NCBI GenBank assembly: GCA_964400165.1
Contig: CAYNSX010000004.1
Span: 5,380-69,379 of the forward strand
DNA length: 64,000 nucleotides
Direction of reading: 5' to 3'
Origin: an uncultured bacterium
GTDB taxonomy: Bacteria; Armatimonadota; Hebobacteria; CAYNSX01
Below the pieces are notes generated by a model, which saw only the letters and a program-made list of their open reading frames with translations, searched no databases and was not told the DNA's origin. Of the stretch, positions 4,260 through 57,064 are shown in pieces. A program made the position numbers and the translations under genes. Each line of letters starts with the position of its first letter. Position 1 is the stretch's first letter.

Positions 4260-4345
4260 GCCCAGGTGGCGAAATGGTAGACGCGCTAGCTTGAGGGGCT
4301 AGTGGGCGCAAGCCCGTGGGAGTTCAAATCTCCCCCTGGGCACCA
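4260..4345 (+). tRNA. tRNA-Leu (anticodon GAG)
   Basis: Folded by hand: acceptor GCCCAGG/CCTGGGC, D arm GCGA-AATGGTAG-ACGC, anticodon stem CTAGC/GCTAG with loop TTGAGGG (anticodon GAG), a long variable arm GGGCGCAAGCCCGT as expected for type II tRNA-Leu, T arm GGGAG-TTCAAAT-CTCCC, discriminator A, then an encoded CCA. Confidence 0.85.
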
Positions 4346-30413: not shown

Positions 30414-31718
30414 TCAGTCCACCACCTTTGGGACATAGCCCCGGAGCACCTCGAGATCGCTCGCAGGATAGCCCTGCACCAGCGCTGCTCGATACAGATT
30501 CCAGGCGACCTTCAATACATTAGAACCAGGAGGACAGTTCACCCTCGAACAGGCATCCCACGCGTATTCTGCCGTGCTTCCTCCGGGGGATGCCATGATG
30601 GCATGATAGTTCCAACTCCAGGTCTGACAGCCATACCTGAGCCCAGTCACATCGATGGGCCATGTACAGAACTGCTTGAAGGGTTGCGACGGGTCACAGT
30701 CAGGTGAAACCGCCGTTGGAACGATCGTTTTCGAATCTCTCGAGGTGACGCCGACTGCCCGACACAAGAGCACTAACAGGTCGTTAACATCATTGCACTG
30801 TCCGTTTACGCGGACGTTCATGTGCGCGCTCTCCGCGACATACAGTTGTGCGTTGAACTCTGGCGGATCTGCCCAATAGTTCGAGTAGAAGTATGCATCG
30901 CCGTCGGCTCGCTGTTGCGGGAAGGGAGGCAAGGGATAATTGAATAGAAACATTTCCACCCATAAGGTCAAACCAGCCGCCACCGAGTCGTTTGTGTTAG
31001 ACATTATCGCGTGCCGACAGGCGTAGTCGAGGAGCGTTTGCCACGGCAGCGCACCCCAGGCCTCGCCGCTCTCAATCCATTGCGGCGCCTCAAGCAAGCG
31101 ATAGATCCGCACGGGGGCTATACCGACTGCCACATCATTGTTCCCAAACTCCCAGTGACTCTCCGTGTCAGTCTTCGTCATGACCATATTCAATTCATAC
31201 CCGATGTCATCCGGCAGCGGTCCCACCTCGAACTCAATGAGATGAATCGTTGGATTCGCGCCCCCGAACTTCAACAGCCATGACGCTTCTTCGGGATCCT
31301 CGCCGCTCCCAACATACACTGGTATGACGCGGTCGAATTCATCGCTGGCCTCTATGGTGAGAATGGTTTTCGTGATGATGGTGCACGAATACAGCACCAT
31401 CGTCACATGCAGCGTGCTTCCCATCAGAACTGCTGTCGGATCCCGGTGCGGATTCGGTCCGCCCCCGACGCTGCATCCATACGGCGCTCCGTCCCACATC
31501 CACCCCGCCGGGTCGGTGGCATGCGGTATCGCAACTTCGTTCAGCCAGATCGCGTATTCTGGCGCGCCGCTGACCTTCAGACTTCGGACGAACAGTTCAC
31601 CATCTTCGCCCTGTTGCTGCGCGTCCACAGGCGCGGACTGCAGCGAAAGCAGCCCACCGAGAATCAGGAGAGCCAGGAGGCCTGGCCTGGCCTTGCCTTG
31701 CCTTGCCTTGCCGCTCAC
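30414..31718 (-). CDS. secreted transglutaminase-like (papain-fold Cys/His/Asp) domain protein
   Basis: GTG start preceded by GGAGGG; signal peptide VSGKARQGKARPGLLALLILGGLLSLQSAPVDA. Core ..GQCNDVNDLLVLLCRAVGVTSRD....WNYHAIM....AWDAC.. resembles the transglutaminase-like C/H/D triad. Lies in the low-GC region. Confidence 0.4.
   Translation of the reverse strand: MSGKARQGKARPGLLALLILGGLLSLQSAPVDAQQQGEDGELFVRSLKVSGAPEYAIWLNEVAIPHATDPAGWMWDGAPYGCSVGGGPNPHRDPTAVLMGSTLHVTMVLYSCTIITKTILTIEASDEFDRVIPVYVGSGEDPEEASWLLKFGGANPTIHLIEFEVGPLPDDIGYELNMVMTKTDTESHWEFGNNDVAVGIAPVRIYRLLEAPQWIESGEAWGALPWQTLLDYACRHAIMSNTNDSVAAGLTLWVEMFLFNYPLPPFPQQRADGDAYFYSNYWADPPEFNAQLYVAESAHMNVRVNGQCNDVNDLLVLLCRAVGVTSRDSKTIVPTAVSPDCDPSQPFKQFCTWPIDVTGLRYGCQTWSWNYHAIMASPGGSTAEYAWDACSRVNCPPGSNVLKVAWNLYRAALVQGYPASDLEVLRGYVPKVVD
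31691..31710. repeat. (CCTTG)4 = (GGCAA)4 pentanucleotide tract inside the first codons of the transglutaminase-like gene
   Basis: On the coding strand GTG AGC GGCAAGGCAAGGCAAGGCAAGG CC encodes the n-region SGKARQGKAR of the signal peptide. Gain or loss of one unit shifts the frame. Confidence 0.6.
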
Positions 31719-31854
31719 CCTTCTTCCCTCCGAATTGATTCTACCCCCGCGATGCAAGAGTTGTGCACTGCTGACAACCGCCTGCTTGCCTGCCACGCCT
31801 TCCGCCGATGCAGTCCTTTCGCCCTGGCGATAAGATGCCATCACACAGGACTCT

Positions 31855-33291
31855 ATGACCACGGACGCCCTCATCGCGGAACTGCGCCGCCTGCTCGGAC
31901 CCGAGGCCGTCTTCTCGCGGCCGGAGGAACTGGCCGTCTACGAATGCGACGCCTACACCGTCCCGAAGATGCGGCCCGAGGCGGTCGTCCTGCCGCGCAA
32001 CACCGACGAAGTGGCGGCGGTGGTGCGGCTGTGCGCCCGGGCGCGGGTGCCTTTCGTCCCGCGCGGCGCGGGCACGGGGTTGAGCGGCGGCACGCTCCCC
32101 ACCCGCGGCGGCGTGATGATCGGCTTGAGCCGGATGAACCGCATCGTCGCGGTGGACATCGCCAACCGCCGGGCGGTGGTCGAGGCGGGATTGGTGAACC
32201 TGCGCCTGACCGAGGCGGTCAGCAGCCGCGGGCTGTGCTTCGCGCCCGACCCGAGCAGCCAGATGGTCTCGACCATCGGCGGCAATGTCGCCGAGAACGC
32301 CGGCGGCCCGCACACACTGAAGTACGGCGTCACCACCAATCATGTGCTCGGCGTGGAACTGGTGCTGCCCGACGGCGAGGTGGTCTGGTGCGGCGCCGCG
32401 GTCGAAGACCTGCCCGGCCTCGACCTGACGGGCGTCGTCGTCGGCTCCGAGGGCACCTTCGGCATCGTGACGAAGGCGATCGTGCGGCTGGTGCCGCTGC
32501 CGCAGGGCTGGCGGACACTGCTGGCCATTTTCCCGAGCATCGACACGGCGAGCCGGGCGGTGTCGGGCATTCTCGGCGCCGGCGTGACGCCGGCGGCGCT
32601 GGAGATGATCGACCAGACGATGCTGCGCGCCATCGAGGAGGCGTTCCACTACGGCTTCCCGACCGACGCCGGCGCGGTGCTGCTGGTGGAACTCGACGGC
32701 ATCGAAGCGGGCCTCGACGCGCAGGCGGACCGCGTCGAGAAGGTGTGCGCGGAGTCGGGGGCGGTCGAAGTGCGCCGGGCGCACGACGCCGACGAGCGCG
32801 CCCATTTCTGGAAGGCGCGCAAGATGGCGGTGGGCACGGTCGGGCGCCTGGCGCCGAGCGTGGCGACGCAAGACGGCGTCATTCCGCGCACCAAACTCCC
32901 CGAGGCGCTGAAGCGCATCGACGAGATCGCGGCGCGGCACCGGGTGCGCATTTGCCATGTCTTCCACGCCGGCGACGGCAACCTGCATCCCGTCACGCTC
33001 TTTGACGAGCGCGACGCCGACGAGGCGCAGCGGGTCCTCGCCGCCGGCATGGACATCCTGCGGGTGTGCATCGACCTGGGCGGCAGTCTCACCGGCGAAC
33101 ACGGCATCGGCACCGAGAAACTCGACGCGATGGCGCTGATGTTCACCGACGACGACCTGGCGGTCTTCCGCCGGGTGCGCGAGGCGTTCAATCCCGACGG
33201 GCTGTGCAATCCCGGCAAAGTGGTGCCGACGGGCGCCGAATGCCGCGAATTGCGAGTCAAGCAGGCCGCGGCGCCGGGCGCATGGGTTTGA
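31855..33291 (+). CDS. glcD: glycolate oxidase subunit GlcD (FAD-linked oxidase)
   Basis: ..VVLPRNTDEVAAVVRLCARARVPFVPRGAGTGLSGG.. (FAD PCMH) and a C-terminal FAD-oxidase domain. Confidence 0.85.
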   Translation: MTTDALIAELRRLLGPEAVFSRPEELAVYECDAYTVPKMRPEAVVLPRNTDEVAAVVRLCARARVPFVPRGAGTGLSGGTLPTRGGVMIGLSRMNRIVAVDIANRRAVVEAGLVNLRLTEAVSSRGLCFAPDPSSQMVSTIGGNVAENAGGPHTLKYGVTTNHVLGVELVLPDGEVVWCGAAVEDLPGLDLTGVVVGSEGTFGIVTKAIVRLVPLPQGWRTLLAIFPSIDTASRAVSGILGAGVTPAALEMIDQTMLRAIEEAFHYGFPTDAGAVLLVELDGIEAGLDAQADRVEKVCAESGAVEVRRAHDADERAHFWKARKMAVGTVGRLAPSVATQDGVIPRTKLPEALKRIDEIAARHRVRICHVFHAGDGNLHPVTLFDERDADEAQRVLAAGMDILRVCIDLGGSLTGEHGIGTEKLDAMALMFTDDDLAVFRRVREAFNPDGLCNPGKVVPTGAECRELRVKQAAAPGAWV

Positions 33292-34454
33292 GCGCGGCGG
33301 GGCTGGGCCACAGCCTCCGCGTCCGCAGCGCGGGAGAAGTGGCGGCGGCGCTGCGCGCGGCGACCGCGGACAACGGCACTGTGTTTCCCGTCGGCGGCGG
33401 CACCCACCAGTTTCTCTCCGACCTGCCGGCGGACGGCGCGACTTTCCTGCACCTCGCCGACCTCGACGACCTGGTGGACTATCAACCGGCCGACTTGACG
33501 GTGACCGTCGGGCCGGGAATGTCGCTCGCCCGCCTGCAGCACACGCTCGCCGAGAAGAAACAATGGGTCGCGCTCGAAGCAGCCGACGCGGAGCGGGCGA
33601 CCATCGGCGGCATTCTGGCGACCGGCTGGGCGGGGCCGCTGCGTCTCGGCCACGGCCGCCCGCGCGACCAAGTGCTCGGGATGCGGTTCGTGACCGGCGA
33701 CGGCGTGCTGGCTAAAGCGGGCGGGCGGGTGGTGAAGAATGTGGCGGGCTACGATGTCTGCCGGCTGCTGTGCAGCAGCCACGGAACGCTGGCGGTCATC
33801 ACGGAGGTGACGCTGCGCGTCCGGCCGCTGCCGGAACGCGAGGAGACTGTGGTGGCGCGGTTCGACGGCGCCGAGGATGCGGTGCATGCCGCCGAGGCGG
33901 TGTGGCGGACGCGCTGGGCGCCGACAATGCTGACGCTGCAGATCGAGCAGCAGTCGGCACGGCTGTTCATCGGGTCGGACGGCGACCCCGACTCCGTCGC
34001 CGCGCAGAGCGCGGCGCTCGCCGAGTTGCTGCGCATCCGCGGCGCGCAGCCGCAAGTGCTGCGCGAGGACCGGTGGAACGAGGCGCCGCCGCGGCAGGCG
34101 CTGCGCGCCGCCGCGGTGCCCGAGTCGGGGCACGGGCTGCGGGTGTCGCTGCTGCCGAGCGACCTGGGCGCGCTGCTGACGACGGTGGGAAGCGAGTCGC
34201 AGTCGGCGGTGGCGCACTACGCGTCGGGGATCGCGCACCTGCGCTTCGCGCCGGGGGCGGTGGCGGCGATGCGGGCAGTGCGGAAGTTCGCGCTGAAGCA
34301 CGGCGGCGCGGCGGTGCTGGAAGGGCCGGGCGTGGACGGCTTCTCGCGTTGGGGCCCGCGGCGGCCCGATTTCCCGCTGATGCAGCGCTTGAAGACCGCT
34401 TTCGACCCAAAGAGTGTCCTGCCGCCGCTGCCATTCGGCGAGGCGCCCCAATGA
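33282..34454 (+). CDS. glcE: glycolate oxidase FAD-binding subunit GlcE
   Basis: ..VFPVGGGTHQF..TIGGILATGWAGPLRLGHGRPRDQVLGMRFVTGDGVLAKAGGRVVKNVAGYD.. The ATG overlaps the glcD stop (ATGGGTTTGA). The upstream part of track ORF 33066.. is an artefact. Confidence 0.75.
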   Translation: MGLSAAGLGHSLRVRSAGEVAAALRAATADNGTVFPVGGGTHQFLSDLPADGATFLHLADLDDLVDYQPADLTVTVGPGMSLARLQHTLAEKKQWVALEAADAERATIGGILATGWAGPLRLGHGRPRDQVLGMRFVTGDGVLAKAGGRVVKNVAGYDVCRLLCSSHGTLAVITEVTLRVRPLPEREETVVARFDGAEDAVHAAEAVWRTRWAPTMLTLQIEQQSARLFIGSDGDPDSVAAQSAALAELLRIRGAQPQVLREDRWNEAPPRQALRAAAVPESGHGLRVSLLPSDLGALLTTVGSESQSAVAHYASGIAHLRFAPGAVAAMRAVRKFALKHGGAAVLEGPGVDGFSRWGPRRPDFPLMQRLKTAFDPKSVLPPLPFGEAPQ

Positions 34455-35671
34455 GTGAGCCCGCCCGCGCCGAACTCGACCAATTGAGCCAGGCCTGCAT
34501 CCACTGCGGGCTGTGCTTGGAGGCGTGCCCGACCTACCGCGTCCTGGGCTCGGAGATGGACTCGCCGCGCGGGCGCATTTATCTGATGCGCGCCGTCCTG
34601 CATGACGAATTGCAGCCGACCGCGACGGTGCAGAAACACCTCGACCGTTGCGTCGGCTGCCGGGCGTGCGAACCGGCGTGTCCGTCGGGGATGCAATACG
34701 GGCGATTGCTCGAGGGGTTCCGCGCCGCGGTGTCGGAACCGGCGCGACCGCGCGGCTGGCGGCGGACAGTGGTGCGCGCGCTGATTCGGACGGTGCTGCC
34801 GCACCCCGCCCGCTTGCGCCGGGCGCTGGCGTGGGGCGCGTTCGCTCGCGCGATCGCGCGCCTGTTCAAGCGCCGCGGGCCGCTGCCGCTGGCGCTTGAT
34901 TCGCTGCCGCAGCCGCAGGCGCGACTGCCGCTGCCGGAGACGACATACGCGGGAGGCGCGCGCGGGCGCGTCGGGTTCTTGCGCGGCTGCGCGATGTCCG
35001 TGCTGTTCCCGGCCGTGAATGCCGATACCGTGCGCGTCCTCGCCGCGGCGGGCTACGCGGTCGTGACGCCGCCGCAGCAGGGCTGCTGCGGCGCGCTGGC
35101 CGCGCATGACGGCGATCACGCGGGCGCGGCGCAGTTCGCGCGGGCGCTGATCGCGGCGTTCCCGACCGACTTGGAATGCATCGTGACGAACTCCGCCGGC
35201 TGCGGCGCCGCTATGAAACAATACGGCCACCTGCTCGGCGATGAGGACGGCGCCCGGTTCGCCGCCACGGTGCGCGATGTCAGCGAAGTGCTGGTCGATA
35301 CTCCGTTGCCGCTCGTCGAGCGGAAACAGCGCGTCGCCTACTACGACCCCTGCCACCTGAAGAACGGCCAGGGCATCACAAAGCAACCGCGGGCGCTGCT
35401 GCGAGCGGCGCCGGGCGTGGAATTGGTCGAACTCGGCGCGCTCGGCTGCTGCGGCGGCGCCGGCGCCTACTTCCTGACGCAGCCCGGACTCTCGCAATCG
35501 CTGCTCGATGCGCTGATGGACTGCGTCGCCGAGGCGAAGCCCGATGTTGTCGTCACCGGCAACCCGTCGTGCCTGCTGCAGTTGCAGAAAGGGGTGGCCC
35601 AGCGCGGCCTGACCATCCCCGTCCAGCACCTCGCCGAGTTCCTGGCTGAATCGCTTTCGACAGACCCTTGA
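34451..35671 (+). CDS. glcF: glycolate oxidase iron-sulfur subunit GlcF
   Basis: MSEPARAELDQLSQACIHCGLCLEACPTYRV..LDRCVGCRACEPACPSG.. (2x 4Fe-4S) plus two CCG domains. ATGA overlap with the glcE stop. Confidence 0.8.
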   Translation: MSEPARAELDQLSQACIHCGLCLEACPTYRVLGSEMDSPRGRIYLMRAVLHDELQPTATVQKHLDRCVGCRACEPACPSGMQYGRLLEGFRAAVSEPARPRGWRRTVVRALIRTVLPHPARLRRALAWGAFARAIARLFKRRGPLPLALDSLPQPQARLPLPETTYAGGARGRVGFLRGCAMSVLFPAVNADTVRVLAAAGYAVVTPPQQGCCGALAAHDGDHAGAAQFARALIAAFPTDLECIVTNSAGCGAAMKQYGHLLGDEDGARFAATVRDVSEVLVDTPLPLVERKQRVAYYDPCHLKNGQGITKQPRALLRAAPGVELVELGALGCCGGAGAYFLTQPGLSQSLLDALMDCVAEAKPDVVVTGNPSCLLQLQKGVAQRGLTIPVQHLAEFLAESLSTDP

Positions 35672-35759
35672 CAGGACATCCACAGGATTGGCATACTAAT
35701 AAAACAAAAGTTTGAATATCGAGACGCATGGAAAGTCTGTACAGTCCGAAGGGAAAGCC

Positions 35760-36701
35760 ATGAGTCGAGAAAAGAACGGCAGAGTTAACAAAGGGCGACG
35801 CGAACGCAGCAGATACCTCTCCCCAATCTATCTGGATGGCATCCTAACAGTCAGAGAGCAGCTTGCGCTCTATGGCTACAAGGTCATCCAACGGAAGACA
35901 CGGGGACGAAAATTCATCGCATTTGGATGGTACGGTGGCAAGTTTTCTCATCTCGATTGGCTCCTGCCGCTGCTGCCCTCGTGTCACCACTACTGCGAAC
36001 CTTTTGGCGGCTCTGCTGCGGTTCTGTTGAATCGGCCCCCTTGTCCCGTGGAAACATACAACGATATTGACGGAGAGGTAGTGAATTTCTTCCGAATCCT
36101 TCGCAGCCGACCAGAGCGACTACTCAAGGAGATTGCGCTCACACCCTTTTCCCGGGAAGAGTTCTTCTTTGCCTGCACAACCAATGGTCAGCGCATAACT
36201 GACCTTGAGCGTGCAAGGAGATTCTTCGTTCGCGCACGACAGGTAAGAACGGGACTTGCGCAGAGTGCAAGCCTTGGTCGTTGGGCAAACTGCAAGAACA
36301 CCACCCGTTCGGGAATGTCTGGCGTCGTGTCACGATGGCTTGGGAGCGTTGACACTCTGCCATCGGTCGCAGAGAGATTGCTGCGAGTGCAAATCGAGAA
36401 CCGCCCAGCTGCCGATCTCGTCAAGCTGTACGATGACAAGGGGACTCTTTTCTACTGTGACCCACCCTATCCCCACGAGGCACGCGGAGATGACAAGGCG
36501 TATGGCGCAGAGATGACAGACGAAGAGCATGCAGAGCTGTCAGAACTCTTGGTGCGCGCAAGAGGCAAGGTGGCTGTCTCGGGCTACCGTTGCAAGCTTA
36601 TGGACAAGCTATACAAGGGATTCCGTCGTATCGATGCTCCAACAAAGCTCTGCCATTCAACCAAGGGACCACGCACCGAATCCCTCTGGATCAACTACTG
36701 A
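35760..36701 (+). CDS. Dam-family (alpha-class, D12) N6-adenine DNA methyltransferase
   Basis: Motif X FGWYGGK, motif I EPFGGSAAVLL and motif IV YCDPPY occur in the Dam order. GC is about 50%, far below the flanks. Confidence 0.7.
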   Translation: MSREKNGRVNKGRRERSRYLSPIYLDGILTVREQLALYGYKVIQRKTRGRKFIAFGWYGGKFSHLDWLLPLLPSCHHYCEPFGGSAAVLLNRPPCPVETYNDIDGEVVNFFRILRSRPERLLKEIALTPFSREEFFFACTTNGQRITDLERARRFFVRARQVRTGLAQSASLGRWANCKNTTRSGMSGVVSRWLGSVDTLPSVAERLLRVQIENRPAADLVKLYDDKGTLFYCDPPYPHEARGDDKAYGAEMTDEEHAELSELLVRARGKVAVSGYRCKLMDKLYKGFRRIDAPTKLCHSTKGPRTESLWINY

Positions 36702-36719
36702 GTTACGACAAGTCCGCGA

Positions 36720-37805
36720 ATGCCTGATCTGAATCTCGAAGCCGCGCGTGAAGTACTTGAGCGCCTCTTCACCGAAGTGGAGGGCGAACTGCTTGAGGGC
36801 ACCGTTCCCTCAGTCGACCCGCGATTCAACGATGCGATCTCACATGTGTTCAGATCCTCCACTCAATCATACAGAGAGATCCTCCTTGGCTGCATCCTGG
36901 CCCGTCTCCAGGACAAGAGCATCGACATTCACCTCCCCTATGTTGGCCTAGGAGAGAATTCATACCACGGCAGAAAACTGGATGAAGACGTGGTGAATCC
37001 ATTCCTGCACGCTCACCAAATCCCAAGCACGCGGGGTGCCTTTCTAGCGGTCTTCCGCAGGTCGGTCAGTTTCGTCCCCGAGACTCGGGAGGGACTGAAA
37101 GATACAGCCGGATATGATTCCCTGCTCATCCTAATCGACTACCTTGCTCAAGAAGTGGACGATGGAGCGATAGAAAGTTTTCTAAAAGTGCTGTTGGCAA
37201 AGTTGGTCGAAGTTCGTGAGGGTGCACGTATTGAGCTAATCAATCTGCAACGACTGAGCGCGGATCAATATGGCGCATTGATTGACGGGCTCCTGGCAAG
37301 ACAGAGTGGGGGGAGATTTCCAGTCATGCTGGTCGCGGCTGCTTTCGAGGCGCTCCGCGAGAGATTCCACTTGCCCTGGGAGATACAGACACAAGGGATC
37401 AATGTAGCGGACCTTCCATCGAAGTTCGGTGGAGACATCGTAATCCTGGAAGGTGACAGGACAGTTTTGGCCGCAGAGGTCACCGAACGACGGATCGACA
37501 AAGAGCGAGTCGTGGCCACGTTTCAGGCCAAAATTGGCCCACAAGGGATTGATGACTACTTGTTCTTTGTCACTGCGGACGTGGATGAGTCAGTGATGCG
37601 CCAATCCAGGCAGTACTTCACCCAAGGTCATGAAGTGAGCTTTGTGCTCATAAAGGGTTGGATTCTCGCAATTTTGCTGACGATCGGCCCTGACGGTCGA
37701 AGGGCCTTCAACAATGCATTGTTGGAACGGTTGTCAGACTCAACGGTACCCTCTTCGCTGAAGGCCATTTGGAACGAACTGATGGTCGTGCTTACAGAAG
37801 TTTGA
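36720..37805 (+). CDS. hypothetical 361-aa protein immediately downstream of the methyltransferase; putative restriction endonuclease partner
   Basis: No recognised motif; the call rests only on adjacency and co-orientation with the Dam-like MTase and the shared low GC. A possible PD-(D/E)xK-like stretch ..GGDIVILEGDRTVLAAEVTERRIDKER.. is not convincing. Confidence 0.3.
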   Translation: MPDLNLEAAREVLERLFTEVEGELLEGTVPSVDPRFNDAISHVFRSSTQSYREILLGCILARLQDKSIDIHLPYVGLGENSYHGRKLDEDVVNPFLHAHQIPSTRGAFLAVFRRSVSFVPETREGLKDTAGYDSLLILIDYLAQEVDDGAIESFLKVLLAKLVEVREGARIELINLQRLSADQYGALIDGLLARQSGGRFPVMLVAAAFEALRERFHLPWEIQTQGINVADLPSKFGGDIVILEGDRTVLAAEVTERRIDKERVVATFQAKIGPQGIDDYLFFVTADVDESVMRQSRQYFTQGHEVSFVLIKGWILAILLTIGPDGRRAFNNALLERLSDSTVPSSLKAIWNELMVVLTEV

Positions 37806-37810
37806 CCTCT

Positions 37811-38572
37811 TCAGCTCCTTGACTTCAGCGCCTCTTTCAACAACTCCACCGTCGCGGCGACATCGGTCTCGATGTAGCGCTCGCCGCGGGCGCGGTCGCC
37901 GAGCGTCGGGTCGCCGACGACCCCGTTGCCGGTGACCTGCTTCCAGGTCTTGCTCTTGAAGTCTTCCCGCGCCTCGCGGTAGTCGCCGGTGAAGCCGGGC
38001 GCGGCCTTGTCCATCTGCACCAGGCCGCTGTGGAGCGCCAGCATGATCGAGGTCTCGACCTCGCCGGCGTGGGCGCCGGCGGCGCCGGTGCCGATGCCGT
38101 CCTTGGCGGCCACCTGATAGAAGCGGTCGAAAGCGGTATCGAGGTCAATCAGGTAGTGCACGCGCGCCGGCGCCACCGTCCGGCGCAAGTCGGCGAGCAT
38201 CGCTTCGAGCGGCGGGAAGTTGCCGCCGTGCGTCGGCAGCAGGACCAGGTCGGTGAGGCCATGCTGCGCCAGGGTGCGGCAATAATCGGTGACGACGGCC
38301 TGCAGCGTTTCGCGGCGCAGCGAGATGGTGCCGGGGAACTCCATGTGGTGGTCGCTGCAGCCGGCGGCGATGCACGGGGCGACGAACGCCTGGCCCAGCG
38401 CCCGCGCCACCCGCTCGCCGAGCGCCCGGCCGTAGGCGCTGTCGGTCATGGTCGGCAGGTGGGGGCCGTGCTGCTCGTTCGAGCCGACGGGGATCAGGCA
38501 GGTGGTCCAGCCGACGGCAATGCGGGCGGCGATTTCGGGCGAAGTCAGATGTTCCAGCGCGACGGTCTCCAC
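37811..38572 (-). CDS. creatininase / creatinine amidohydrolase family protein
   Basis: ..IPVGSNEQHGPHLP..D....HGGN.. metal-binding pattern of the creatininase fold. The start is taken at the GTG of VETVALEH (M/V45 of the track ORF). Confidence 0.6.
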   Translation of the reverse strand: METVALEHLTSPEIAARIAVGWTTCLIPVGSNEQHGPHLPTMTDSAYGRALGERVARALGQAFVAPCIAAGCSDHHMEFPGTISLRRETLQAVVTDYCRTLAQHGLTDLVLLPTHGGNFPPLEAMLADLRRTVAPARVHYLIDLDTAFDRFYQVAAKDGIGTGAAGAHAGEVETSIMLALHSGLVQMDKAAPGFTGDYREAREDFKSKTWKQVTGNGVVGDPTLGDRARGERYIETDVAATVELLKEALKSRS

Positions 38573-52705: not shown

Positions 52706-55700
52706 TCAGAGGGGCAGTTGCGCCGCCCGCGTAATGAAAACTGCCATTTGGGCGCGGGTAACGATGTTCGCCGGCTTATATGTGCCGTCCGGGAATCCGG
52801 CTGTAATGCCCTTGCTGACGATGTATTCGATGAACTTGTAGGACGGGTGCGCGCACGAGACATCCGAGAAGCGCTCGCTGCCGCACGCTGGGGGAGTGAA
52901 AGCAGCAAGGTCGAGGTCGGCCAGGTCGCGCACGCGCGCAAGGAACACTGCCATCGCGCCGCGGCTGACGAAGTTGCCCGGTTTGTAGGTGCCATCCGGA
53001 AAGCCCGCGGCAATCCCCTTGCTGACAATGTACTCGATGAATTTGTAGGACGGGTGAGTGCACGAGAGATCGGAGAAGGTCTCACTGGCGCACGCTGGCG
53101 GCGCGAAAGAAGCGAAGTCGCCAAGCGTCAAATTTGCTGCCCGCGCCATGAAGACCGCCATCGCGCTGCGACTGACCATGCTGTCGGGGTGAAAGGAGCC
53201 GTCAGGGAACCCAGAAGCGATGGCGGCACGCGATACGGCTTCAATGAATTGGAATGCCCAGTAGCCGCAGGGGACATCGGAGAAGGAGTCGGCAGTTTGC
53301 TTCACAGCGTAGGAGACCGTGTCTTCCGAGGTCAGGCCACCCCAATCGGTGACGCGCAGCCGCACCGTGGTGACGCCAAGCGGCAACTCTATGACCTTGC
53401 GCTCGCCTTGCTCGTCAACGGTACCATCGTTTCCGAAATCCCACTCGAAGAAGGCAATGTTGTCGTTCGTGTGGGGCAGCGAGTCGAAGTCGGACGACCG
53501 CGTCCCATCGAGGAGTATTGTGCCAGCGGTCGCCTGGCAGCCGACGACGGTCGTCACATCGGGGCCGGCATCCGCTATCGGCTGCCGGTTCCCGCCCACC
53601 GCGACGAAGACCTCGCGTTGCAGCGCAGAATCGCGACCGAATCCGTTCGACACAGTGATCAGGGCCTCGCCGGAGTCAACAGCGGTGACAAGGCCGTCCG
53701 AAGTCACGGTGGCCACGGTCGGATCGGAAGTGGCAAACGACGTGCCGGTCGTCGTATCTGTCAGGTCGCGCCATAGCTGATCATTGAAGAGGCCCGTCAC
53801 TTGGAGCGGTTGGCTCTCTCCCATGTTTGCAAAGCGGATCGCGTCGGGCTGCACGACCAGATCAGCAAGGATCGCGTTTGGCATAGCGGTGACTGTGACC
53901 GCGGGGGAAGTGACCAGCGAACCATCTGCCAGCTGCCCCGCGGCCGAGATGGTGATGGGGCCGGAAGCGTTCGCCGATACCTGGTATGAAACAGTCCACG
54001 GGCTGCTCCCGGCCGGGTCGAGGACGACCGTGTCGTCGACTCCGAGCACGACCAGGCTTTGAGGCGCGATCCCATTGTCAGCGACGACCGTTACACTCAC
54101 GCTGCTGCCGCTTTCGACTTGCGTCCCCCCCAATGGGGCCGTGATATGCAATTGCCCATGCGAGGAGGGCCGCAACCTCGACGTGCCGGACACTGCACGC
54201 GGGGCCGCGCTCAACCTGGATAGGGCTGATGGTGCTGGTGGGAATGCGAAGGTCGCGGTATAGCTCGGGGTGTTGAGCAGCGCAAGAACGCGATCCCGGT
54301 ACACCGGGCTCGTTGTGTTCGCGGGGTGATTGAAGTCGCAGCCCTGAAACACATCGTACGCTCCGGACGGAAGCCCTCCCCGCTGGCTGTATGCGGACAC
54401 GATCCCATCGCTCGATGCACCTGAGAACACCGTATCCCATACCCCACACGCCGTATCCACGCCGCCGGCAGCGCATAGTGACCAGGTCTTAATGGCAAAG
54501 GAAAAGAAAACCCTCGCGTCAATGGAAAGACAGAACAACGCTTCACAGCCAAATCCGGCGTGCCCAATGAGCGCGTGAGTGGGGATTCCAGTCGCGCCCA
54601 TGTCCAAAATAGCCCGATTGCCAGGGACAAGGTCGTTCACTGCGCCCTGGTCGATTGGCAATCCTGCCTGGGCCATCAGCCAAGTCAGATATTCGCCGCA
54701 TAGCAAATGATTATCACGCATGTCGACGAGAGCGAGGGCGAGTCCTGACCCGAAGTGAGGGGTGTCAAGCGTAATGAGCTTGTGAACATCGCCCTGCATG
54801 AGGTTATCTCGGCGCCGGTATTCGGGCTGGTTGAAATACACCCGCGTCAGGACGCCGCCCATACTGTGTCCCACAATATCGGCGCCCATGACAGCGACTC
54901 CCGGGCGCCGCAGCTTGAACAGCGCAATTGCTTGAGCCACCGCGGTTCTCGGGACCAGAGCATTGGCAGCGAAGGAGAGCGCACTGCCTCGAGTGGAGGG
55001 ATCGTTGTCGGAATCCCCGTCGTAGTCCGCGATCCACATCACGAATCGGGAATCTTGTATGAATGATGTAAAGAACGGTGCCTGACCTTGAGACCAAGTG
55101 TCCGCGTTGGACCAGACACCATGGAGCAGTACCACCGGAGGGCGGTGAATTTCGATGGATGTGTCCGGAAGCGTTTGTGCAGAGCCTCCCGCCGGATAGA
55201 AAGTCGCGTGCAACACGACACTGCGGGTGGCGCGAAATGCGTCGCCGGGCGCGCTCATGCGCACGAAGTCGGCCGGCGCCCGGTAATAGGCAAAGGCGAA
55301 TTTCCCCCGCGAGGTGTTCACCACCGGCACTGTCAGCGCCAGTCGTGGGTCGGAGCGATTGGCGAAGTACAGGCCGCCGCCCTCGTTAGTGTTCGCCTCA
55401 TTCTGGACTGCAAAAGCCACCGTCCCGTCGGCGGTAGCCGGCAAGCGCAAGAGCACTGTCGCTTGACCGTCCGCCGCGACGCCACGTCGCGGGCCGCCGC
55501 CGACGGCTAACACCTCGGCGGCAGTGACGGTATTGCCGGTGCTGCCAACGAACTCCGGCCAGGCGTCGAGCCGCTGGACGGGTCCGCGAACTGCGCGATT
55601 CGGACCGGTCGTGAATGCTACCGTGGCGTAGTTGGAATAGCCGACCGGGTAGTCGTAGTACAAGGCAGTGCCCGTCACGAACACGGTCGCCCCATCGGGG

Positions 55701-57064
55701 CTGACAGCGAGCGCCGTATTGGTCTCCCAGTTCGAATGTGTCTCCCACAGCTGCTTCCCGGTGGCGGTGCTGTAGGCGACGGTGGCGAAGGCGTCGACGG
55801 GGCCTCCACGGGTGATCCCCGTCACTAACACAGCCCTACCATCCGGGCTGACGGCCATCGCACTCGACAGCCCCAGCGCCGTGTCGATGTACCGCGCCTC
55901 CCAGCGCTGCGTGCCAGTGGCAGCGTCGTAAGCAACGGTGGCGCAGTCGGATTTCCAGTTGAAACTATTCACCCAGAACCCCGCCGAGGACCCCGTCACG
56001 AACACGTTCGCCCCGTCCGGGCTGACTGCGGCGTCGATCGCCTGGTCGTGCCAATTGATAGGTCCGTCGTAGCGCGACTCCCACAGTTGCGCACCAGTGG
56101 CCGCGCTGTAGGCGAGAGTGACGTAGTCGTAGTCGGGGTCCGGGCCGCCGCCCAAAACGGATCCCACCACGAAAACTATCGCCCCGCCCGGGCTGGCAAC
56201 GATGGCGGCCACGAACGCTCCCCCAAAGTCCTCCCCGCAGTAGTGGGCCACCGGAATCGTCGGCAACTCCGTCCACAGTAGGGCCCCGTTTGCGGCGTTC
56301 AAAGCCACGGTGCTGATACATGAACCACTCCCCGTCACGAACACCGCCCCCCCGTCAGGGCTGACGGCGATGGCTTTCCCCGGACTCGTAATATAGGCGT
56401 CATTGACTTGCGCCTGCCAGCGCTGCGCGCCGGAAGCGGCGTTGTAAGCGACGGTGGTTAATCCCCCGACCCCGGTGATGAACACGGTTGCCCCGTCCGG
56501 GCTGACGGCGAGGACCTTTTCAGGACTGAGGCCCTGATTCGGCCCCTGGGTCCCATTTTCGTACCGCGCCTCCCAGACTTGCGCGCCGGTGGCAGCGCTG
56601 TAAGCGAGAGTGACGTGATCCCAGCCGGGATCCGCGACGCTTTTCGAAGTCCCCGTCACGAAAACTGTCGCCCCGTCCGGGCTGACGGCGGCGGCCACCG
56701 CTCGGTCGTCCGCATTGTTCGGCCCGTTGTAGCGCGACTCCCACAATTGCGCGCCGGTGGCAGCGTCGTAGGCGACGGTGTCGTAGTCGGGGTCACCGCG
56801 GTTTTCATCGTTTGCCCAGTACGACCCCGTCACAAAAACAGTAGCACCGCCGGAGCTGACGGCGACGGCGGTCGCGCCTTCAAAGCGGTGGGTCTCCGAC
56901 AGCACATCCCAGAGCACCGATACCGGCCCTTCAAGTGTGTATGTGCCCTGGAGGCCACTGCCCATGGCCGGCGCCGGGGCGCGGGTCAACAGCCCCAAAG
57001 ACCCCAGCAGAACCACTCCGGCCGCGAAGAGCCGTGGTATGCGCTGCGCCCGGTAGCCCCTCAT
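52706..57064 (-). CDS. giant S-layer-homology (SLH) anchored multidomain protein (1452 aa): SBBP-type beta-propeller repeats, alpha/beta-hydrolase (lipase-like), Big_2, PKD, and 3 C-terminal SLH domains
   Basis: About 9 repeats of ..SPDGATVFVTG..YDxVTLAYSAATGAQLWE.RY..; lipase-like ..LLHGVWSNADTW..GHSMGGVLTRVYF..; PKD ..PIADAGPDVTTVVG..; Big_2 ..DSGEALITVSNGF... Three SLH motifs: FSDVPCGYWAFQFIEAVS..GFPDGSFHP, FSDLSCTHPSYKFIEYIVSKGIAAGFPDGTYKP and FSDVSCAHPSYKFIEYIVSKGITAGFPDGTYKP. The start is set at M404 of the track ORF (signal peptide MRGYRAQRIPRLFAAGVVLLGSLGLL); the upstream 403 Arg-rich codons overlap the next gene. Confidence 0.7.
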   Translation of the reverse strand: MRGYRAQRIPRLFAAGVVLLGSLGLLTRAPAPAMGSGLQGTYTLEGPVSVLWDVLSETHRFEGATAVAVSSGGATVFVTGSYWANDENRGDPDYDTVAYDAATGAQLWESRYNGPNNADDRAVAAAVSPDGATVFVTGTSKSVADPGWDHVTLAYSAATGAQVWEARYENGTQGPNQGLSPEKVLAVSPDGATVFITGVGGLTTVAYNAASGAQRWQAQVNDAYITSPGKAIAVSPDGGAVFVTGSGSCISTVALNAANGALLWTELPTIPVAHYCGEDFGGAFVAAIVASPGGAIVFVVGSVLGGGPDPDYDYVTLAYSAATGAQLWESRYDGPINWHDQAIDAAVSPDGANVFVTGSSAGFWVNSFNWKSDCATVAYDAATGTQRWEARYIDTALGLSSAMAVSPDGRAVLVTGITRGGPVDAFATVAYSTATGKQLWETHSNWETNTALAVSPDGATVFVTGTALYYDYPVGYSNYATVAFTTGPNRAVRGPVQRLDAWPEFVGSTGNTVTAAEVLAVGGGPRRGVAADGQATVLLRLPATADGTVAFAVQNEANTNEGGGLYFANRSDPRLALTVPVVNTSRGKFAFAYYRAPADFVRMSAPGDAFRATRSVVLHATFYPAGGSAQTLPDTSIEIHRPPVVLLHGVWSNADTWSQGQAPFFTSFIQDSRFVMWIADYDGDSDNDPSTRGSALSFAANALVPRTAVAQAIALFKLRRPGVAVMGADIVGHSMGGVLTRVYFNQPEYRRRDNLMQGDVHKLITLDTPHFGSGLALALVDMRDNHLLCGEYLTWLMAQAGLPIDQGAVNDLVPGNRAILDMGATGIPTHALIGHAGFGCEALFCLSIDARVFFSFAIKTWSLCAAGGVDTACGVWDTVFSGASSDGIVSAYSQRGGLPSGAYDVFQGCDFNHPANTTSPVYRDRVLALLNTPSYTATFAFPPAPSALSRLSAAPRAVSGTSRLRPSSHGQLHITAPLGGTQVESGSSVSVTVVADNGIAPQSLVVLGVDDTVVLDPAGSSPWTVSYQVSANASGPITISAAGQLADGSLVTSPAVTVTAMPNAILADLVVQPDAIRFANMGESQPLQVTGLFNDQLWRDLTDTTTGTSFATSDPTVATVTSDGLVTAVDSGEALITVSNGFGRDSALQREVFVAVGGNRQPIADAGPDVTTVVGCQATAGTILLDGTRSSDFDSLPHTNDNIAFFEWDFGNDGTVDEQGERKVIELPLGVTTVRLRVTDWGGLTSEDTVSYAVKQTADSFSDVPCGYWAFQFIEAVSRAAIASGFPDGSFHPDSMVSRSAMAVFMARAANLTLGDFASFAPPACASETFSDLSCTHPSYKFIEYIVSKGIAAGFPDGTYKPGNFVSRGAMAVFLARVRDLADLDLAAFTPPACGSERFSDVSCAHPSYKFIEYIVSKGITAGFPDGTYKPANIVTRAQMAVFITRAAQLPL

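Follow-up and report, generated by a model that had tools for sequence, protein, structure and literature searches.

The two-gene island analyzed here, located in a 64,000-nucleotide stretch of DNA from an uncultured Armatimonadota bacterium (contig CAYNSX010000004.1, positions 5,380 to 69,379; hereafter the window, in whose own coordinates all window positions are given), has its closest described counterpart in the SacI system of Streptomyces achromogenes, a type II restriction-modification (R-M) system whose endonuclease is the prototype of Pfam family PF09566 (RE_SacI) and cleaves GAGCT^C. The cognate methyltransferase, M.SacI, is reportedly a C5 enzyme that produces 5-methylcytosine (m5C), and a more distant relative, EcoT38I, is said to recognize GRGCY^C. 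SacI and EcoT38I leave 3' overhangs, and PvuII, which recognizes CAGCTG, cuts blunt. The characterized methylation of GAGCTC by M.Sgr13350I is m5C as well (PMC11275837), SacI and PF09566 have been assigned to the PD-(D/E)XK superfamily (PMC2441816; PMC3424549), and the EcoT38I system includes a controller (C) protein (PMC2632904). We found no usable publication describing the structure of EcoT38I, the SacI family, or an N6-methyladenine (m6A) system for GAGCTC or CAGCTG.

The island shares with SacI a homologous nuclease, a single chain of approximately 360 amino acids with a PD-(D/E)XK core, and the two-gene type II arrangement, and members of the same nuclease clade exceed the Pfam cutoff. 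Unlike in SacI, the partner is a D12 N6-adenine methyltransferase, although C5-partnered branches exist in the family. Because the characterized methylation of GAGCTC is m5C, the adenine pairing is a variant of the prototype arrangement, and one that is common and already annotated. EcoT38I (PDB 7E8R and 7EDB) is 14% to 17% identical to the window nuclease and carries E-V-K where the window clade has E-V-T. Not every GRGCYC site could be protected by an adenine methyltransferase, and the specificities of the two systems would therefore differ at least in part. Unlike the EcoT38I system, the island encodes no C protein or other helix-turn-helix (HTH) protein; among C-protein-controlled R-M systems the comparison extends to the relatives of the window nuclease on viral contigs, where a controller-like HTH gene accompanies a C5 methyltransferase. 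The PvuII system, which is protected by N4-methylcytosine (m4C), is relevant only if the CAGCTG lead discussed below is right, and its proteins are unrelated to the window pair.

We consider it highly likely that the island is a minimal, self-contained type IIP R-M cassette recently gained by horizontal transfer. The initial annotation, made from the sequence without database searches, had offered a type II R-M module as one of its readings, and this is borne out by a PD-(D/E)XK partner of the SacI family that is nearly always linked to a Dam-class methyltransferase. The main features are as follows.

35672..37810: low-GC island, foreign in its GC content, between the convergent 3' ends of glcF and a creatininase gene
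35760..36701, + strand: D12/Dam-class (alpha) N6-adenine DNA methyltransferase, 313 aa (Pfam PF02086, 1.7e-22)
36720..37805, + strand: predicted type II restriction endonuclease of the SacI family, 361 aa; N-terminal half helical, C-terminal core of the PD-(D/E)XK type

Predicted activities of the two gene products

The product of gene 1 matches PF02086 (MethyltransfD12) with 80.8 bits against a cutoff of 22 and the PADLOC model MTase_II PDLC03244 at 7.7e-55. As the initial annotation had recognized, motifs X (FGWYGGK, 35922-35942), I (EPFGGSAAVLL, 35997-36029), and IV (DPPY, 36459-36470) follow one another in the order of the alpha class. All of the approximately 90 positions that are invariant in 27 related methyltransferases are kept in the window enzyme, which is 58% to 75% identical to the methyltransferases paired with SacI-family nucleases in all branches. 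Its Pfam family, motif order (X, I, DPPY), and S-adenosylmethionine (SAM)-binding residues are common to Dam, DpnM, and T4 Dam, but the resemblance to GATC enzymes is distant: the solved structures of Escherichia coli Dam and DpnM match at approximately 1e-6, the TIGR00571 dam model gives 2.4e-18 and 66.8 bits, below its cutoff of 114.85 bits, and the E. coli Dam equivalog NF008152 gives 34.3 bits against 441. The sequence thus predicts an intact SAM-dependent D12 N6-adenine methyltransferase that is not an ortholog of the GATC Dam. A further difference from Dam, DpnM, and T4 Dam is a clade-specific N-terminal "PSPIYLD" box followed by a basic linker before motif X (35760-35920); both are conserved in most methyltransferases of the clade and lacking in those of Halorussus, Nostoc, and locus L100. 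The start codon in the NCBI record is ATG 35760 (313 aa, protein P0121), which replaces the alternative TTG at 35712 and its 329-aa open reading frame (ORF), taken as gene 1 in the initial annotation.

The second ORF starts 18 nt past the methyltransferase stop on the same strand. The initial annotation had found no recognizable family for its product and suggested a novel restriction enzyme or another effector; both suggestions give way to a described family whose pairing with a methyltransferase is already annotated by NCBI elsewhere. The protein aligns to positions 34-274 of the 276 positions of RE_SacI (18.9 bits, E-value of 0.0015), a protein identical to it (P0001) carries a precomputed PF09566.18 match, and the database search retrieved at least 510 homologs, all with a precomputed PF09566 match; NCBI or JGI records call several of them "restriction endonuclease, SacI family." An exhaustive HMMER search yielded 336 representative nuclease clusters, and distant members of the family connect to the window nuclease at E-values of 1e-16 to 1e-18 (phmmer). 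Clear non-nuclease homologs of the 361-aa protein, which would have argued for another function, were not found.

The fold points in the same direction. A confident AlphaFold model built from 33 homologs (predicted local distance difference test score, pLDDT, 86.8) is helical in its N-terminal half and has an alpha/beta core toward the C terminus. The sequence profile of the clade retrieves EcoT38I from the PDB at 3.8e-7, and a solved type II restriction enzyme matches the nuclease along its whole length by both fold and profile. The PD-(D/E)XK restriction-endonuclease fold, which the initial annotation had named among those to look for, is thus the one found, and gene 2 is predicted to encode an intact endonuclease of the SacI/EcoT38I type.

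Linkage, spread, and decay of the gene pair

The conservation of the pair was assessed at 85 loci encoding relatives of the nuclease, some of which are redundant copies of one contig. A methyltransferase homolog lies directly upstream of the nuclease on the same strand, usually with a gap of 0-30 nt, in 80 of the 85; 4 of the 5 loci without an upstream methyltransferase end at a contig edge, which leaves the pair present in 80 of 81 informative loci. Two loci depart from the common layout. L051 (5001-6080) carries a full-length nuclease homolog with approximately 5 kb of upstream sequence and no detectable D12 methyltransferase, and CAGCTG is not depleted in its flanks. At L055 (3525-5903), no more than a fragment of the methyltransferase is present, and the nuclease match is shortened at its 5' end.

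The pair occurs in long contigs amid unrelated housekeeping genes (gltX/glnS, acnA/lgt, and HIT/ligA) and on plasmids of Agrobacterium, Aeromonas, Nostoc, and the archaeon Halorussus, where GenBank labels the two genes "DNA adenine methylase" and, following it, "restriction endonuclease, SacI family." Relatives of the cassette are found on conjugative or mobilizable plasmids and on phage-like contigs, and such elements are plausible vehicles for it. Nuclease homologs are present on 11 IMG/VR viral contigs; none was found in GenBank records of phages. Two individual contexts may be mentioned here. On the Agrobacterium plasmid pAtCFBP6626a (L120 and L121, 100-200 kb), the cassette lies amid Tn3-family transposons, duplicated mercury-resistance operons, and integrases, and at L118 (14021-15250) it is surrounded by many small ORFs, with a phage capsid gene approximately 3 kb away, and is probably within a prophage.

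Across the family, nuclease identity falls to 20% to 26%, while the methyltransferases stay at 58% to 75%. This far better conservation of the methyltransferases suggests that a single methylation specificity may hold throughout the D12-partnered family. Other partners occur as well: a distant branch (P0391; 24% to 28% identity) adjoins a C5-cytosine methyltransferase, and 6 IMG/VR viral contigs (L126-L131) encode a nuclease of the window clade (37% identity; 44.6 bits on RE_SacI) in a layout consisting of a Cro/C1-type, controller-like HTH gene, the nuclease, and a convergent C5-cytosine methyltransferase (for example, L128 5778-8201). A gene for a 776-aa AAA_13 ATPase adjoins the nuclease module on these contigs.

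The nuclease ORF is full length and free of stops in 84 of 88 copies. An identical methyltransferase (P0186) accompanies an intact nuclease of 373 aa in L105 and L106 and an altered one in L104 and L107; at these last 2 loci (L104 11215-12036 and L107 3045-4166) the nuclease is truncated (273 aa) or split (174 and 181 aa) and the methyltransferase is intact. Loss of the nuclease before the methyltransferase is the usual route of R-M decay. The 4 loci suggest different stages of such decay, and loss of the nuclease first suggests that it is the nuclease that is costly to carry.

A proposed active-site variant without the canonical lysine

The catalytic region of the nuclease is predicted as follows.

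37314..37649, + strand: predicted PD-(D/E)XK catalytic domain, residues ~199-310, with strand and helix order taken from the model
37434-37436, + strand: D239, candidate active-site residue
37476-37478, + strand: E253, candidate active-site residue
37482-37484, + strand: T255, candidate active-site residue, followed by the further candidates E256 and R257
37530-37532, + strand: K271, candidate active-site residue

D239 and E253-V-T255 align with the D...E-V-K of EcoT38I. In an alignment of 28 diverse family members with EcoT38I, E253 never varies, and N228, D231, D239, and K271 are almost always kept. The motif E-[VI]-T-E-R, found in 82 of 88 clade copies, has Thr where the canonical Lys of PD-(D/E)xK enzymes would be expected; this Lys is kept in EcoT38I and in distant branches of the family (EVKDK, EAKDR, and EMKLK). 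Catalysis in the window clade must therefore differ in detail from that of EcoT38I. Because the motif is conserved and the methyltransferase is strictly retained, we infer that E-V-T-E-R is a Lys-less variant of the active site rather than an inactivated one.

The same substitution is the starting point for the alternative that survives best, namely that the island is a decaying remnant in which an orphan methyltransferase works and the nuclease has been rendered catalytically dead by the exchange of Lys for Thr. T255 does stand in place of the Lys of EcoT38I and the distant branches, and decay of the nuclease with retention of methyltransferase sequence does occur in the family (L104, L107, and L055). 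The Thr, however, is not a local lesion but a feature shared across the clade together with many other invariant residues, every one of which is present in the full-length nuclease ORF of the window. Moreover, a methyltransferase beside the nuclease in nearly every informative locus would be expected only for a dangerous nuclease, and the C5-partnered members of the same clade, with their controller-like HTH gene, again display an R-M arrangement. We regard a remnant as unlikely.

Considerably less probable still is that the 2 genes belong to another methyltransferase-linked defense system, such as one resembling PD-Lambda-5, or that the partner is a DNA-binding or regulatory protein and not a restriction enzyme. 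A secondary PADLOC match of the methyltransferase to PD-Lambda-5_B (2.8e-12) and the lack of any PADLOC or NCBIfam match for the partner would fit this view, but the PADLOC model for type II methyltransferases fits far better, the partner is a PF09566 member that resembles a solved type II restriction enzyme throughout, and the island contains no further genes.

Foreign composition and acquisition of the island

The island is flanked by 2 genes of host composition.

34451..35671, + strand: glcF, glycolate oxidase Fe-S subunit, 406 aa (Pfam CCG and Fer4)
37811..38572, - strand: creatininase-family amidohydrolase, 253 aa (Pfam Creatininase, 8.5e-65)

The sharp fall in GC reported in the initial annotation is confirmed: the GC content is 0.532 in the island and 0.664 in the remaining window, and the island is the minimum-GC 2139-bp stretch of the 64 kb (mean 0.659, sd 0.033). 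In 300-nt windows, GC is approximately 0.66-0.77 across glcD, glcE, and glcF, 0.50-0.58 at approximately 35.6-37.8 kb, and approximately 0.69-0.72 in the creatininase gene. GC at third codon positions (GC3) is 0.58 and 0.59 in the 2 island genes versus 0.87-0.93 in glcD, glcE, glcF, the creatininase gene, and the next 2 ORFs. The coding strand of the island contains 2 ORFs of at least 100 aa and no more, and there is no integrase or transposase gene within the island.

At the available resolution, the edges match the stop codons of glcF (35669-35671) and the creatininase gene (37811-37813), in agreement with the initial placement of the boundaries at the gene ends. The true junctions, though, may sit a few codons inside both genes, because both C-terminal tails differ at the island edges from those of a close relative. 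Window glcF (P0405) and the relative's glcF (P0406) are 87% identical and diverge only in the last residues (...AESLST-DP* in the window and ...AESLQS plus 7 residues in the relative); likewise, the creatininase is 92% identical to the relative's P0399, and only its C-terminal tail diverges (...ALK-SRS* in the window versus ...ALK-R*). The relative's contig, of 386,377 bp, encodes in addition a GlcD that is 96% identical to that of the window. It holds no member of the 90%-identity cluster of either island protein, and the next-best nuclease among 5.8 billion clusters is 54% identical. A scan of genome contigs with the creatininase protein found no close relative, the best match being 47% identical.

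Short palindromes set the island apart from its host. The window minus the island contains 12 copies of ACGT versus 134 expected (observed/expected ratio, O/E, 0.09) and 33 of AGCT versus 143 (O/E 0.23), and depletion of CTAG (O/E 0.47), CATG (0.56), and GATC (0.61) is milder. The island, in 3.3% of the length, holds 4 ACGT and 9 AGCT, that is, 13 of the 58 such sites in the window (binomial p-values of 1.6e-3 and 8.5e-6, respectively); relative to its own composition, AGCT is not depleted (9 versus 7.2 expected) and ACGT is slightly low (4 versus 6.8). The near-absence of the 2 tetramers thus belongs to the host and not to the island, and it suggests long-standing pressure from restriction systems with 4-base sites in the lineage. 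A similar contrast in base composition exists elsewhere in the family: the GC content of the cassette averages 0.533 versus 0.585 in the flanks and is the lower of the two in 42 of 46 other loci, and cassette GC tracks flank GC across hosts (r 0.64).

Horizontal acquisition, as envisaged in the initial annotation, is therefore supported by foreign GC and GC3, by an island free of the host's avoidance of ACGT and AGCT, and by the lack, at the level of protein clusters, of a counterpart in a close relative; the composition marks the island as foreign and the comparison with the relative supports a recent arrival. We consider it very improbable that the pair is long resident and low in GC through constraints on the individual genes. 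The correlation of cassette and flank GC does point to some amelioration in the family, but GC3 contrasts with all neighbors, the tetramer numbers are normal in an otherwise purged host, a relative with 87% to 96% identical flanking proteins has no counterpart of the island proteins among the protein clusters, and the last codons of both flanking genes change at precisely the edges of the island.

Close to each end of the cassette there is one copy of a 12-nt imperfect direct repeat, ACA[A/G]AAGTTTGA (35704-35715 and 37794-37805). It was rejected as a terminal repeat, being away from the compositional boundary and probably due to chance, and no convincing terminal repeat was found.

Candidate recognition sites

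Two hexamers were considered in particular. GAGCTC, the site of the family prototype, occurs 3 times in the window versus 25.5 expected from dinucleotide shuffles, but it is rare there because AGCT is depleted throughout the host; under third-order and fourth-order Markov models its O/E is 0.75 and 1.31, and the rarity was discarded as evidence for SacI specificity. In 254 kb of sequence flanking other cassettes, GAGCTC has an O/E of 0.68, an ordinary depletion for a palindrome.

In the same 254 kb, none of the 2,057 hexamer classes is as strongly depleted as CAGCTG (27 observed versus 72.7 expected; O/E 0.37, z -5.4), which falls below expectation in 49 pieces and above it in 6. The signal was partially replicated in 103 kb of independent flanks, where CAGCTG (23 versus 44.7; O/E 0.51) lies beneath expectation in all 12 pieces and ranks third, with AAGCTT lower. 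The O/E is 0.74 at 9 unrelated control loci, which are few and not taxonomically matched, and 2 plasmids do not discriminate on CAGCTG. The host sequence of the window shows no depletion (10 versus 7.7 expected), as would be expected for a recent arrival. Published methylation of CAGCTG is m4C. Site avoidance in the flanks thus weakly points to CAGCTG as a possible recognition site, a lead and not a conclusion. GAGCTC, by extension from the family prototype, is a tentative assignment that we think probably wrong, and CAGCTG, from site avoidance, is slightly more doubtful; a site that is neither of the 2 comes close to an even chance.

A more far-reaching reading, to which we give rather little credence, is that the E-V-T-E-R clade is a large, uncharacterized branch with the SacI/EcoT38I fold that cuts without the canonical Lys and does not have GAGCTC as its site. 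CAGCTG protected by N6-adenine methylation would then be the leading candidate from the computations. If true, CAGCTG, N6-adenine methylation, and probably staggered cleavage would make a combination so far undescribed; to our knowledge, the known CAGCTG systems are m4C-protected blunt cutters of the PvuII type.

Proposed mode of action

In a type IIP cassette of this kind, the methyltransferase and nuclease genes would be transcribed as one operon, methyltransferase first, from a promoter located at the island's left edge, where one candidate is found.

35668..35697, + strand: sigma-70-like promoter candidate (TTGACA and CATACT separated by 18 nt, with a TG ahead of the -10 element), agreeing with the consensus at 10 of 12 positions; its -35 hexamer shares bases with the glcF stop codon

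The methyltransferase would be made first and would methylate an adenine in each strand of a short palindrome. The nuclease, which is probably homodimeric with Mg2+ bound by D239 and E253, would then make double-strand cuts at the same site wherever it is unmethylated and so destroy incoming phage or plasmid DNA. Because no controller protein is encoded, we propose that gene order and start context delay the nuclease: the start codon of the nuclease lacks an evident Shine-Dalgarno sequence, and this lack, the gene order, and the 18-nt spacing would presumably hold nuclease expression behind methylation. The cassette may double as an addiction module, because its loss would leave the cell's own sites unprotected, and post-segregational killing would stabilize the island.

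Several points weigh against an active, recently acquired R-M cassette. Activity and specificity at the island are predicted from the sequence. The nuclease falls 0.4 bits short of the RE_SacI gathering score of 19.3 in the local copy of Pfam and matches no PADLOC or NCBIfam model, and the catalytic Lys that is canonical for the (D/E)xK motif is replaced by T255. The promoter candidate is the sole match in 35400-38000, where approximately 0.9 would be expected by chance, and is only suggestive. The empty site in the relative was deduced from protein clusters and not read as DNA. Finally, the host avoids neither candidate site beyond its general depletion of AGCT.

Significance and other features of the window

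For general biology the cassette carries little weight: type II R-M cassettes are among the commonest mobile defense genes, and public annotation pipelines already name the pairing of a methyltransferase with a SacI-family nuclease. The 2 minor points of interest, both modest, are the Lys-to-Thr variant of the active site and the recognition site. Members of the clade abound in metagenomes from soil and sediment, and the unusual Thr for the catalytic Lys makes the clade a reasonable target for enzyme discovery. Standard tools under-call the cassette; defense finders would report an orphan methyltransferase because the nuclease falls just under the Pfam cutoff and has no match in the PADLOC and NCBIfam collections. 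The island is also a clean case of unameliorated foreign DNA in a host with extreme avoidance of ACGT and AGCT, and it may be useful for work on the tolerance of such hosts toward incoming R-M systems.

Three further features of the window were recorded. The region 53740-56854 (window 53700-56900) holds another 13 of the 58 ACGT and AGCT sites, a mild second cluster, at a slightly lowered GC content of 0.625-0.66 and may be a further stretch of foreign DNA. Directly upstream of glcD, GC dips a second time (0.54-0.60) at the position of a 486-aa ORF (30414-31874, - strand) that has a signal-peptide-like N-terminus and a weak, sub-threshold match to Transglut_core (17.6 bits). A tRNA-Leu(GAG) at 4260-4345 is the sole RNA family match in the window.

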